64,000 bases of DNA from a virus, in IMG/VR virus record IMGVR_UViG_3300013102_000030, positions 96,001 through 160,000 of that record; one strand, 5' to 3'. Of this stretch, positions 2,549-9,451 are shown piece by piece. A model generated the notes under the pieces. It saw nothing but the letters and a program-made list of their open reading frames with translations, searched no databases and was not told where the DNA came from. The stretch's first letter is position 1. Every line of letters begins with the position of its first letter. Position numbers and translations under genes: made by a program.

Positions 2549-2585
2549 CTTTTTCATGCCCAAAACAAATCAAAGTAAAGGAAAT

Positions 2586-3557
2586 ATGGAACGCCAGCTT
2601 GTCACACTTGAAACTATCTCAGAAATCAACCCCATTCCTGATGCAGACGCTATCGAAGTCGCCAAGGTTCGCGGGTGGAATGTTGTCACTAAGAAGGGCG
2701 AGTTTCAGCCCGGAGACGAAGTCCTCTACTTTGAGATCGATTCTTTCCTTCCCATTTCCGACCCTCGGTTCGCTTTCCTTGAACCACGTGGTGTCCGAGT
2801 ACAGGATGGAGTTACGGGACACGTTCTCAAAACTGTACGCCTTAGAGGCCAGTACTCTCAAGGACTTATCAAACCAGTATCTGAATTTCCTGAGGGACTT
2901 CCGGATATCGTCAAGTTTGACCCTCCCCTTCCCGCAGGTCTTGAAGGTGCAGTAGAAGGCCAGTTCCTCTACCAGTTCGCTCCCAAGACGGATGCAGAGC
3001 GTATTCAGAACCTTGGACGAGTCCTCAATGAGATCCATGAGCACGAGTGGACTGCCACTGAGAAGATCGACGGAACATCTACCACAATCGTCAACGATGG
3101 CGGAACCATCCGGATCTGCTCCCGTAACTGGGAGATCAGCCGCCCCAGCGCACGGTTCGATCTTGCCGACAAGCTGAACCTTGCGGAGATCCTTCCTGTG
3201 GATCACGCGATTCAGGGTGAGTACTTTGGTGAGAACATCCAAGGTAACCCTCTCGGGATCAAGGGCACGGACTTCAAGGCGTTCAACCTCTACCGGAAGA
3301 CCGATAATGGCCCTGTAGCTGTTCCGTTCAATGAGTGGGGCGAAGAGCTTAGCGCTCTACAGGTCCCTGTGCTTCCTCTGACGCTCCCGCAGGCCATCCA
3401 TGAGATTGTGGATCAGGCTGATGGTTTGAAGTCTGTAATCAACCCACAGCGCCTTGCAGAAGGTATTGTGTGGCAGGGACCGAAGGGCTTCCCGTTCTTG
3501 GGTAACCGTCCCGGATTCAAGGCCATCTCCAACAAGTACCTTGCCAAGCAGAAGTAG
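2586..3557 (+). CDS. RNA ligase, DRB0094 family
   Basis: N-terminal IPDADAIE...GDEVLYFEIDS; TEKIDGTS, QGEYFG, EGIV and FKAIS ligase motifs; AAGGA RBS before ATG 2586. Confidence 0.9.
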   Translation: MERQLVTLETISEINPIPDADAIEVAKVRGWNVVTKKGEFQPGDEVLYFEIDSFLPISDPRFAFLEPRGVRVQDGVTGHVLKTVRLRGQYSQGLIKPVSEFPEGLPDIVKFDPPLPAGLEGAVEGQFLYQFAPKTDAERIQNLGRVLNEIHEHEWTATEKIDGTSTTIVNDGGTIRICSRNWEISRPSARFDLADKLNLAEILPVDHAIQGEYFGENIQGNPLGIKGTDFKAFNLYRKTDNGPVAVPFNEWGEELSALQVPVLPLTLPQAIHEIVDQADGLKSVINPQRLAEGIVWQGPKGFPFLGNRPGFKAISNKYLAKQK

Positions 3558-7014: not shown

Positions 7015-7971
7015 ATGACATTGTTTTCCCTCTCCGAAGACCGCAAGGGCAAGACTCTTACGATCTTCTTTGACAACGGAGACTGTGAGCCGATCCCGGA
7101 ATCTCACGTCAACTTCAAGAAGATCCTTGGAATGTGGCTTGAAGGTGGCAAGATCGATGACACCGAAGTCCGAGAACTGACAAAGATCATGGAGACGGTT
7201 GCCAAGAAGCTTGCCGTCCTGTCCGAGCGTATCACTGTGGACTCCGATGGAGTGTACTTTGATGGTGATCCGCTCAACGGTGAAGTCTCCGAACTGATCA
7301 AGAACGCGTACCTGAACGACGAAGAGCTTCAGGTTGGCTCTCTGGTCAACTTCATTGAGAAGGCTATGACCAACCCGTCCCTGAAGTCGCTGGATGATCT
7401 CTACCGCTGGATCAAGAACGGTGACTTGGTCATCGATCCTGACGGTGATATCCTTGCCTACAAGGGCACCGTCCTGAACTCCAAGGGCATCCCTGAGTCG
7501 GTCCACTCCGGTACGGCATTCGTCAACGGTGAGAAGATCACCGGCAAGATCCCGAACGTCGCTGGAACCACCATCACCATGCCGCGCTCCAATGTCAACG
7601 ACAACGAAGCCATTGCATGCTCCACAGGTCTGCACGCTGGTACGTACCGCTACGCCTCCAGCTTCGCTCAGCACTTGATTCAGGTCAAGATCAACCCTCG
7701 TGACGTTGTGTCTGTCCCGAAGGATGCCCGTGACCAGAAGATGCGTGTCTCCCGGTACATCGTACTGGACAAGATCACCGAGCGCGTCAAGACGACCTTT
7801 GCCAAGGCTCCTGTAGCCGTCAAGGAGATCTCCGAGACCAAGAGTGAGATCAAGACCGAGAAGCCTGCTGTACCCGCAGCAGAACGCATTGGAGCCGTCC
7901 GTGACTCCAAGGGCCGCTTCATCAAGGGAGCCAAGGTTCCCCGTGACGAGAAGGGACGGTTCATCCGATGA
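7015..7971 (+). CDS. rIIB: rIIB-like protein
   Basis: NPS...DG.ILAYK, MPRSNV, CSTGLHAG, INPRDVVSVP; C-terminal RD.KGRFI repeated twice. Confidence 0.88.
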   Translation: MTLFSLSEDRKGKTLTIFFDNGDCEPIPESHVNFKKILGMWLEGGKIDDTEVRELTKIMETVAKKLAVLSERITVDSDGVYFDGDPLNGEVSELIKNAYLNDEELQVGSLVNFIEKAMTNPSLKSLDDLYRWIKNGDLVIDPDGDILAYKGTVLNSKGIPESVHSGTAFVNGEKITGKIPNVAGTTITMPRSNVNDNEAIACSTGLHAGTYRYASSFAQHLIQVKINPRDVVSVPKDARDQKMRVSRYIVLDKITERVKTTFAKAPVAVKEISETKSEIKTEKPAVPAAERIGAVRDSKGRFIKGAKVPRDEKGRFIR

Positions 7972-8189
7972 GCCAGAATACAGAAACCTCTAGCAAGAGT
8001 GGCATCGGCTTTGTCGGCCTGCTGACTCTGCTCTTCATCGGCCTCAAGCTGGCCGGTATCGGTGTGGTTGCAACATGGTCTTGGTGGTGGGTTCTTTCCC
8101 CAATCTGGATCACATTCTCCCTTGTGTTTGTGATTGCACTTGTTGCATTCATCATCTTGGGCATTGCGTTCCTCATCAAAAATAAGTAG
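7968..8189 (+). CDS. Small membrane protein
   Basis: GIGFVGLL...LKL...WSWWWVLSPIWI hydrophobic motif; ATGA overlap. Confidence 0.8.
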   Translation: MSQNTETSSKSGIGFVGLLTLLFIGLKLAGIGVVATWSWWWVLSPIWITFSLVFVIALVAFIILGIAFLIKNK

Positions 8190-8227
8190 TACAATAGGTT
8201 TACCGCTCCTCGGGGCGGTATTCCTTT

Positions 8228-8301: not shown

Positions 8302-8362
8302 CGTGACAAAACAATTTGAAGATGATATAATGGTTTCATCAACAAGTTATGTCCGTTGAAAT

Positions 8363-8434
8363 GCTTCCTTAGCTCAGTGGTAGAGCGCATTCTTGGTAAG
8401 AATGAGGTCGCGGGATCGATTCCCGCAGGAAGCT
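8363..8434 (+). tRNA. tRNA-Thr (GGT)
   Basis: GCTTCCT/AGGAAGC, CATTC-TTGGTAA-GAATG; T loop ATCGATT. Confidence 0.92.
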
Positions 8435-8436
8435 CT

Positions 8437-8558
8437 ATGTTTCTGCGTCCCCCATGATGTTTTAGGCCGAGTGGGTACGTTGATAGACCTGAGTCCCCAT
8501 TTAGCGTCAACGCGCAAGGGCGAGGGTCCGTGGGTTCGAATCCCACACGCAGAGACAT
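8437..8558 (+). ncRNA. tRNA-like ncRNA lacking a canonical anticodon arm
   Basis: 12-bp terminal stem stacked on a perfect T arm GTGGG-TTCGAAT-CCCAC; about 80-nt non-tRNA interior. Confidence 0.65.
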
Positions 8559-8564
8559 TGACCT

Positions 8565-8639
8565 GCGGGTATGGTCGAAAGGCAAGGCGGCTGACTGCAA
8601 ATCAGCAGAGTCCCGGTTCGATTCCGGGTTCCCGCTCCA
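8565..8639 (+). tRNA. tRNA-Cys (GCA), CCA encoded
   Basis: GCTGA-CTGCAAA-TCAGC, U73, CCA. Confidence 0.92.
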
Positions 8640-8663: not shown

Positions 8664-9178
8664 ATGACAATCGCTACACTGCCAGTAAGGGTGCTCAATG
8701 CATCCTACGAAGACCTAGGACCGACTACGCTAGATCGTGCCATGGCGCTTGTCGAAGTTCAGGGCCGAGCAGAAATCATCATGGTTGACGAAACCAAGAC
8801 CATCCGAACAATGGGCGGACGAGAGTTCTTCCTGCCGAAGATGATTCGACTTCTCACATGAAAAAGGTTGATGTATATTGGGCACCGAAGACATGGTCCC
8901 GAGAAGGAGTAATCAAGCGAGACGGAGGTATCTGCGGATACTGTCTCAGCAGGAACGGTGACACTGTTGACCACATCCTAGCAAAGGATCTCGGTGGTAA
9001 GGGCGAATGGTTGAACACCATGGCCTGCTGCCTCAAATGCAACGGAGCCAAGTCCAACATGACTCTGGAAGCATGGGGAAAGCCCATCCTCCATGACATG
9101 AGCAAGGAGAGGGCTATCCCGAAGCAAATGTACTACCGGAGTGAATTCTCCAGACGCAAGCGTAAGAAGAACCACTAG
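8664..9178 (+). pseudogene. HNH endonuclease split by a -1 frameshift (8664-8861 and 8858-9178)
   Basis: VLNASYE...P..IRL N-terminal half, then RD...CGYC...TVDH...GG...N..CC..CN..K HNH half in another frame. Confidence 0.75.
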
Positions 9179-9229
9179 ATTGTCCCGGTTACCCAGTAGC
9201 CGGGACTTTCTGTTGCCCAAAAGGTGATT

Positions 9230-9451
9230 ATGATAGACTATCTAAAATGGCTGTTCAATAGGAAATGCCAACACGAGAGAATCCGCTGCATTCACGGAGA
9301 CGAAATCATTCAGGCTGGATACAAGAGGGCGACATGCCTTGACTGCCCGAAGCTCTTTGATTCCCTGCCGGAGTATTGCTCCTTCACTCTGGAGAAGCAT
9401 CCGTCCTTTGTTGTCCCTGTGACACACACAATGGACCCTCACCACAAATAA
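9230..9451 (+). CDS. Small Cys/His-rich hypothetical protein
   Basis: C.H...RCIHGDEI...C..C; AAAGG RBS. Confidence 0.7.
   Translation: MIDYLKWLFNRKCQHERIRCIHGDEIIQAGYKRATCLDCPKLFDSLPEYCSFTLEKHPSFVVPVTHTMDPHHK

Follow-up and report, generated by a model that had tools for sequence, protein, structure and literature searches.

A conserved tRNA-shaped RNA gene, probably non-decoding, between tRNA-Thr and tRNA-Cys of a large soil phage

The locus and the fold of the element

The stretch of DNA analysed here (64,000 nucleotides; hereafter the window) comprises bases 96001-160000 of the 174-kb IMG/VR virus record IMGVR_UViG_3300013102_000030 and comes from a large soil phage. According to its rIIB-like protein, the closest cultured relatives of this phage are Mimi, Racecar and Talia1610 (56% identity), which are ~190-kb phages of Arthrobacter globiformis, followed by Atuin (46%). 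Its 30 tRNA genes serve all 20 amino acids; three are for tRNA-Ser and three for tRNA-Leu, with tRNA-Leu(gag), (tag) and (caa) present, and the same region encodes an RNase T-like exonuclease and an RNA ligase (2556-3557). In the window, tRNA-Thr(ggt) (8363-8435) and tRNA-Cys(gca) (8565-8639), both identified with ARAGORN and Rfam, flank the 122-nt element that is the subject of this study (8437-8558); all features given below lie on the plus strand. A strong promoter-like site, GTGACA-17-TATAAT with the TG of an extended -10 box, is located upstream of tRNA-Thr at 8303-8331 (11/12 matches; three promoter-like sites were found versus 0.7 expected), and no terminator-like site was found from there to the next gene, suggesting that tRNA-Thr, the element and tRNA-Cys would be made as one transcript. 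Extended -10 boxes of the TGATATAAT type recur ahead of tRNA genes in the window and in the comparison loci L198, L201 and L282.

Several other features were noted around the cassette. A hairpin, ACCGCTCCTCGGGGCGGT, followed by a T-rich tail at 8201-8220 lies between a small membrane-protein gene and tRNA-Arg, and is conserved in relatives. The HNH endonuclease gene 3' of tRNA-Cys (8664-9178) consists of two overlapping frames, 8664-8861 and 8858-9178, joined by an ATGA overlap. An intact 171-aa homolog in L198 matches the first piece with residues 1-65 (95% identity) and the second with residues 66-170 (75%). The gene may be truly split, or a frameshift or sequencing error may have divided it, and the drop in identity within the gene suggests a recombination joint. 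A VapB-like (PF23719) antitoxin-type gene is found directly 3' of the HNH gene, next to the tRNA cassette, in L198 (3170-3496), L201 (5769-6065) and L285 (4989-5234); the small window ORF at the corresponding place (9224-9451) had no Pfam match.

With its full closing stem the element measures 122 nt; trimmed to a tRNA-like form with a 7-bp acceptor stem and discriminator it spans 8442-8554. The closing (acceptor) stem pairs ATGTTTCTGCGT (8437-8448), of which the inner seven nucleotides (8442-8448) occupy the acceptor position, with ACGCAGAGACAT (8547-8558), which starts directly after the T stem; no CCA is encoded. In the window copy this stem has 12 bp with one G.U, and its third pair is U-A. 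A D-like arm (8451-8475) follows, with the stem CCCAT/GTGGG (8451-8455 / 8471-8475) and a 15-nt loop containing AGGCCGA, the GG being placed as in a D loop. In the place of the anticodon stem lies stem S1 (8478-8512), in which CGTTGA (8478-8483) pairs with TCAACG (8507-8512) around a 23-nt loop (8484-8506) that opens with a conserved UAGACCU, and the sequence reads on into a canonical T arm, GUGGG-UUCGAAU-CCCAC (8530-8546). The original prediction, made from this sequence by itself, had described the T arm, the 12-bp closing stem, the 5-bp stem with its 15-nt loop and the 6-bp stem with its 23-nt loop, all of which were confirmed by direct reading. It had also noted that there is no 7-nt anticodon loop, which holds for the whole family, the loop closed by S1 being 19-23 nt across copies. 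A proposed loop-loop pairing (TTAGG/CCTGA) did not survive comparison, as it is not kept in homologs (sequences compared by eye), in which the CCU of the big loop pairs instead with the AGG of a conserved AGGG(U/A)CC before the T arm.

The minimum free energy (MFE) fold uses an alternative, possibly pseudoknotted, set of pairs. In every copy it leaves S1 unused and forms a long hairpin (8486-8528 in the window) made up of helix A (GACCU/GGGUC, 8486-8490 / 8524-8528), helix B (GUCC/GGGC, 8493-8496 / 8518-8521) and the less conserved helix C (8501-8506 / 8513-8517). Helix A stands in the position of a class II variable arm, beginning 2 nt after S1 and ending 1 nt (C) before the T stem. The fold of the window copy has an energy of -47.1 kcal/mol, better than 200 of 200 shuffled sequences (z = -2.96).

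Conservation, covariation and distribution

Homologs were identified in the same slot, between tRNA-Thr and tRNA-Cys, in Mimi, Racecar and Talia1610 and in the metagenome contigs L282, L284 and L200, the contigs being found with the neighbouring rIIB-like protein as an anchor. In Mimi a relative of the element fills a 113-nt unannotated gap and is identical in Racecar and Talia1610. L282 has a Mimi-like copy with a different D-like arm, L284 a full-length copy with a 13-bp closing stem, and L200 an L284-type copy that is ended by the contig edge. The family comprises four distinct full sequences in three lineages, with lengths of 107-122 nt. A single-sequence covariance model, built from the window copy and the cloverleaf-like structure, scored L284 at 69 bits, L282 at 32.5 and Mimi at 32, with ordinary tRNAs at about 20 bits or less; a model of the four sequences (R2) scored the window copy at 120 bits and Mimi at 101, with all else in 49 phage records at 28 bits or less.

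On the four-sequence alignment, 94.8% of the cells of the 28 cloverleaf pairs hold standard pairs and 16 of the 28 pairs are changed on both sides, versus 31-44% paired when partners were slid by 1-3 columns; the alignments behind this count and the second one below were each fitted to the structure tested, so the counts lean towards it, and they hold four sequences from three lineages only. The closing stem is 100% paired across homologs with 7/12 pairs changed on both sides, but its length differs, from 12 bp in the window and 13 bp in L284 down to 5-6 bp in Mimi and L282, whose stems end in mismatches. The window and L284 closing stems differ at most positions, yet stay 12 and 13 bp long beside tRNA-Cys genes that are 96% identical. 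In the D-like stem (CCCAU/GUGGG in the window, CCAC/GUGG in L284, GGCU/GGCU in Mimi and GGCU/AGCU in L282) four of the five pairs have changed on both sides, as have three of six in S1 (CGUUGA/UCAACG in the window, CUCUGA/UCAGAG in L284 and (C)ACCGA/UCGGU(A) in Mimi) and two of five in the T stem, which is 100% paired and reads ACGGG/CCCGU in L284. Every copy has the elbow nucleotides, with UUCGAAU/A as its T loop and GG within its D-like loop, the loop motifs GAUAGA(U)CCU and AGGG(U/A)CC are conserved, and the core is identical in Mimi and L282 although their tRNA-Thr neighbours differ. G.U pairs on the plus strand agree with an RNA transcribed the same way as the tRNAs. As discriminator the window copy has G, the L284 copy A and the Mimi and L282 copies U, and a tRNA-processing or charging enzyme might treat copies with such varied acceptor ends and discriminators differently. 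Judged from these comparisons, the element is a real, conserved and selected RNA gene and not a decaying tRNA: an ordinary tRNA in decay without covariation is ruled out by the changes on both sides of pairs, the retained helices and the retained elbow nucleotides. Such decay was the outcome that the original prediction had named as refuting it.

A second count was made on an alignment fitted to the long hairpin, with S1 written as a pseudoknot. The cloverleaf with the extra helices then has 41 pairs, of which 20 are changed on both sides, and is 95.8% paired versus 32-49% in slid controls. S1 is 100% paired on this alignment as well (3/5 pairs changed on both sides). Helices A and B together (9 pairs) are 97% paired with two pairs changed on both sides, through the replacement of A-U by U-A in helix A and, in helix B, of G-C by A-U and of U.G by C-G or U-A, and helix C (5 pairs) is 89% paired, also with two. 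Nearest-neighbour energies favour the hairpin by 1-6 kcal/mol, and Mimi-type copies score about 8 bits better with the model containing S1 than with the hairpin model (32 vs 24 bits). The apical loop of helix C is at the same time the 3' strand of S1, and changes in its sequence are followed by the 5' strand of S1 (CAAC/GUUG, CAGA/UCUG). S1 and the long arm cannot nest, so the RNA would be either a pseudoknot or a mixture of two conformers. A classical coaxial H-type pseudoknot of S1 with the whole long arm was set aside by reasoning, as its 2-nt and 0-1-nt linkers look too short; this leaves two alternative folds, or a pseudoknot in which S1 combines with helices A and B.

The element is patchily distributed. 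It is absent from the nearest relatives of the window, L198 and L199 (rIIB 84% identical to the window), from L201, L285 and L286, the last two belonging to Mimi's 90% protein cluster, and from more distant relatives. In many relatives that lack it the same two tRNAs lie 1-4 nt apart (4 nt in Atuin). Its loss from the closest relatives shows that the phages can do without it. The window flanks are nearest to L198 (82% identity for the 3' end of rIIB, 93% for tRNA-Arg and 84% for the first HNH gene part), but tRNA-Thr and tRNA-Cys are nearest to L284 (89% and 96% identity, versus 77% and 79% to L198), indicating that the block of tRNA-Thr, element and tRNA-Cys has a history separate from its surroundings. 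From these sequence relationships we infer that the block is exchanged as a cassette between related phages, which would explain the patchy presence better than repeated precise deletions. A spacer UCCGAU before tRNA-Cys is common to L284 and Mimi and fits a single origin of the element. HNH gene relatives were tried as a guide to further carriers and dropped, since they did not track the element.

Wider searches added no copies. IMG/VR was scanned with a pattern of T arm plus acceptor strand and with two motif patterns, giving 0 matches, and a looser pattern gave chance matches only, among the matches listed. BLAST of the 5' parts of the element against 50,697 phage records recovered Mimi, Racecar and Talia1610 only, 160 loci anchored on rIIB (80 from IMG/VR and 80 from metagenomes) held no additional copy, and a covariance-model search of 49 whole phage records returned the window and Mimi only.

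Other tRNA-like elements were seen in the course of these comparisons. An orphan T arm, TGGGG-TTCGAAT-CCCTA, is conserved in seven Streptomyces-phage-type IMG/VR records (L138, L140, L141, L151-L153 and L178; locus ~7590-8070), directly followed by CCGGCC that pairs with GGCCGG about 26 nt upstream; it forms a miniature acceptor/T-arm element without D or anticodon arm and is not called by ARAGORN. In other phage tRNA clusters, four different tRNA-shaped genes (L189:698-795, L181:542-645, L223:730-832 and L194:3547-3651) combine perfect 7-bp acceptor stems and T arms with oversized interiors, the L181 gene having a 22-nt loop on a 9-bp 'anticodon' stem beside a normal D arm; all four scored at most 15 bits with covariance model R1 and by that measure are unrelated to the element family. 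In the relative L129 (4236-4355; the same as L207) the tRNA-Thr slot is empty, and a 120-nt stretch directly 3' of tRNA-Cys has a T arm (GCGGG-TTCGAAT-CCTGT) and a 6-bp acceptor-like pairing; the family model does not detect it.

Decoding capacity, serine-type features and rival explanations

The elbow of a tRNA is retained in the element, with a closing stem set on a 5-bp T stem, a T loop of the form UUCRANY and GG in all D-like loops, but the anticodon arm is not, there being no 5-bp stem with a 7-nt loop and S1 closing 19-23 nt instead. ARAGORN called no tRNA or tmRNA in the window copy, also with introns enabled, with a lowered threshold and in tmRNA mode. The Infernal search against Rfam proposed in the original prediction found no family that covers the element: Rfam 15 gave no match to the window copy at E<=10 except antisense plastid-UTR models at the T-arm region, RF00005 matched neither the window copy nor those of Mimi and L284, whether at its gathering score or at E<=10, and the T arm is the sole part touched by Rfam models. 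The prediction of a novel tRNA-like non-coding RNA is supported: three lineages conserve the element, each of its helices shows compensatory changes, and neither Rfam nor ARAGORN has a family for it.

The nearest ordinary tRNAs are of the serine type. BLAST of the element matched its 3' part to the variable-arm and T-arm region of phage tRNA-Ser genes, and the family model placed tRNA-Ser(CGA) of the Caulobacter phage phiCbK highest (35.7 bits) among the ordinary tRNAs scored with it. The two share the acceptor, D arm, variable-arm base and T arm in the same order and spacing. In both, two nucleotides precede a stem that starts with GACC, and the 3' strand of this stem (GGUU in phiCbK) is followed by a single C and the identical T arm, GUGGG-UUCGAAU-CCCAC. 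The phiCbK D arm, UGGCUGAGAGGCCGAAGGC, is very near that of the Mimi copy, which reads Ser-like, and the D loop of the element is of the Ser type (GGCCGA in the window, UGGCUGAG in Mimi). Helices A and B covary in the position of the variable arm and follow the phiCbK layout, but no anticodon stem stands before them and they compete, or form a knot, with S1. The element differs further in having no anticodon stem-loop, a variable-arm-like hairpin of ~43 nt instead of ~14 nt and a closing stem of 12-13 or 5-6 bp instead of 7, and in going unrecognized by RF00005 and ARAGORN. A Ser anticodon loop is absent from the element, and G73 is found in the window copy only (A in L284, U in Mimi and L282). 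On sequence grounds, the element can be read as a class II tRNA of the serine type in which the variable arm expanded to about 43 nt and the anticodon stem-loop disappeared. No parent stood out among the phage's own class II tRNAs on comparison.

Taken together, the element is probably a genuine gene under selection whose product is a tRNA-shaped RNA that does not decode, descends from a class II (serine-type) tRNA and acts as a tRNA mimic. A class II tRNA pseudogene decaying without activity would be consistent with the loss of the element from the closest relatives of both carrier lineages, with an acceptor stem of only 5-6 bp in Mimi-type copies and with its rejection by every tRNA finder. 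It is nevertheless very improbable given the changes on both sides of pairs in every helix (16/28 and 20/41 pairs), pairing of ~95% versus 31-49% in slid controls, closing stems of the window and L284 that have diverged and still form 12-13 bp, and conserved loop motifs in a core that Mimi and L282 share despite differing tRNA-Thr genes. It is also improbable that the element is a decoding tRNA with an insert, either an intron or a very large anticodon loop, that functions after processing or through unusual codon reading. The last seven nucleotides of the big loop (UUUAGCG, UGUAGUG and UUGAGUC in the three lineages) can be read by eye as NAG (Leu) anticodons, but this puts a pyrimidine at position 37 and loses U33 in L284, and Leu(gag), (tag) and (caa), like every other amino acid, are already covered by phage tRNAs. 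The RNA ligase of the phage and a weak ARAGORN call of tRNA-Gly(ccc) with a 21-nt intron in the Mimi copy would suit splicing by phage ligases, as the original prediction had also entertained. This version fared poorly, however: ARAGORN with introns was empty on the window copy, a tRNA was called in none of the variants made by single deletions of 5-55 nt (0/2580 for the window, 0/2019 for L284), and deletion variants of the Mimi and L282 copies gave scattered, unrelated and hence inconsistent anticodons. No bulge-helix-bulge motif is present, the insert falls far below the size of a group I intron, and neither discriminator nor acceptor is conserved.

Two further explanations accept a conserved RNA and assign it another task. 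As a spacer acting in cis, the element would aid processing or stability of the tRNA-Thr/tRNA-Cys transcript, as an entry site for RNase P or RNase Z or as an insulator, and have no job once released. In favour of this, the element invariably occupies the slot between these two tRNAs, with which it travels as a cassette, and it keeps precisely what RNase P recognizes, namely the T arm, the coaxial stem and the elbow. A processing handle, however, needs no conserved and covarying interior (S1, helices A-C and the loop motifs), and many relatives manage without the element with the same tRNAs 1-4 nt apart, so we give this explanation little chance. The remaining candidate is a Y-type RNA, a YrlA-like tRNA mimic working with the phage's own Ro60/Rsr. 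The phage does encode a TROVE/Ro60 (Rsr) protein within its tRNA region (G000:C1:85224-85733, a 549-aa open frame, 58.7 bits), tRNA-like domains are found in bacterial and phage Y RNAs (PMC4201824), and the window and L284 copies have a long end-to-end stem. The Ro60 gene, however, lies 10.3-10.8 kb before the window start, about 19 kb upstream of the element, and the two do not co-occur, as Mimi has the element without a TROVE match and Atuin has TROVE without the element. In addition, the arms are in the normal, unpermuted tRNA order, and the terminal stem is free of bulges and only 5-6 bp long in the Mimi type, making this reading extremely unlikely. At its gathering scores, Rfam reported nothing but tRNAs in G000:80000-96000, the stretch that includes the Ro60 gene.

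Proposed role and comparison with known tRNA-like RNAs

A tRNA mimic remains the most likely role for the element, since there is no 7-nt anticodon loop and neither acceptor length nor discriminator is conserved. A single transcript starting from the promoter-like site at 8303-8331 would carry the element together with tRNA-Thr and tRNA-Cys, and processing of these flanking tRNAs would free its RNA. It retains what tRNA-handling proteins read, namely the coaxial helix of closing stem and T arm and the elbow in which the T loop (UUCGAAU) meets the GG of the D-like loop. The anticodon arm is missing, and its place is taken by the short strand CGUUGA and the expanded variable-arm-like hairpin (helices A, B and C), which together may form a pseudoknot or two alternative folds. 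Such an RNA would bind a protein that recognizes tRNA shape, and hence occupy, titrate or recruit it.

As candidate functions the original prediction had offered a decoy for tRNA-targeting toxins or EF-Tu, or a ribosome ligand. Our best guess is that the RNA takes part in a conflict between phage and host over tRNAs, for instance by acting as a decoy for a nuclease directed against tRNA. A gene that the phages can lose, that changes rapidly with compensation and that passes between relatives in an accessory cassette speaks for such a role. In the account given in PMC10264068, phage tRNAs evade tRNA-targeting defences. A more specific version, which we regard as rather unlikely, is that the element is a pseudoknotted or two-state mimic of tRNA-Ser without a cleavable anticodon loop, which acts as a decoy or inhibitor of a host factor targeting class II tRNAs and is swapped in the Thr-mimic-Cys cassette. 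The long variable arm, elbow and acceptor/T helix that are kept would be what anticodon-blind readers of tRNA-Ser need, and possible targets would include seryl-tRNA synthetase or a defence nuclease directed against tRNA, of the VapC type or another. If the element is truly a decoy in a conflict over tRNAs, it would represent an RNA-based counter-defence beside the known protein-based and tRNA-replacement strategies. Its presence in the cultured phages Mimi, Racecar and Talia1610 of A. globiformis, which have natural element-free sister phages, provides a testable system. Phage tRNA clusters are usually annotated as tRNAs plus 'spacers', and one such 'spacer' would here be a selected RNA gene with an architecture of its own, apparently a serine-type tRNA whose anticodon arm was lost and whose middle was rebuilt.

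Among known tRNA-like RNAs, tmRNAs are marked by a G3:U70 pair, a tag reading frame with a resume codon, pseudoknots and a length of >230 nt. The element resembles their tRNA-like domain in its acceptor/T-arm minihelix, non-canonical body and possible pseudoknotting, but has neither G3:U70 nor a tag reading frame and is about one third the size. ARAGORN in tmRNA mode (-m) was empty and the tmRNA models of Rfam matched at the T arm only (7-12 bits vs a gathering score of 47), in agreement with the original view that this is not a tmRNA. YrlA-type Y RNAs are bacterial and phage tRNA mimics that partner Ro60/Rsr and have tRNA-like domains (Chen et al., 2014, PMC4201824). Like the element, YrlA is a non-decoding RNA with a T arm, a D arm and an acceptor-like stem, and is encoded by phages too (PMC4201824), but it is circularly permuted and has its two ends in a Ro-binding stem at the anticodon position (PMC4201824), whereas the element is unpermuted. 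The original prediction had likewise kept the element apart from the permuted YrlA arrangement, a distinction borne out by its normal arm order and by Mimi, which carries it without a TROVE/Ro60 match.

Non-decoding look-alikes of phage tRNAs have been known since the species 1 (rnaC) and species 2 (rnaD) RNAs of T4. These are 119-139-nt non-coding RNA genes among phage tRNA genes, as is the element, and in the 139-nt rnaC a T arm (CCGGG-UUCGAAU-CCCGG) is closed by paired ends while long hairpins replace the D and anticodon arms. The function of T4 species 1 RNA is still unknown (PMC9697503). The predicted fold of rnaC differs in having no GG-bearing D-like arm and neither the S1 nor the variable-arm layout, both T4 RNAs belong to another phage group with hosts of another phylum, and similarity to rnaC, in sequence or by the family model R2, goes no further than its T arm (12.5 bits), while the model had no match in rnaD. 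The nearest counterparts of the element are T4 species 1 RNA and YrlA, with T4 rnaC the closest in setting and general build.
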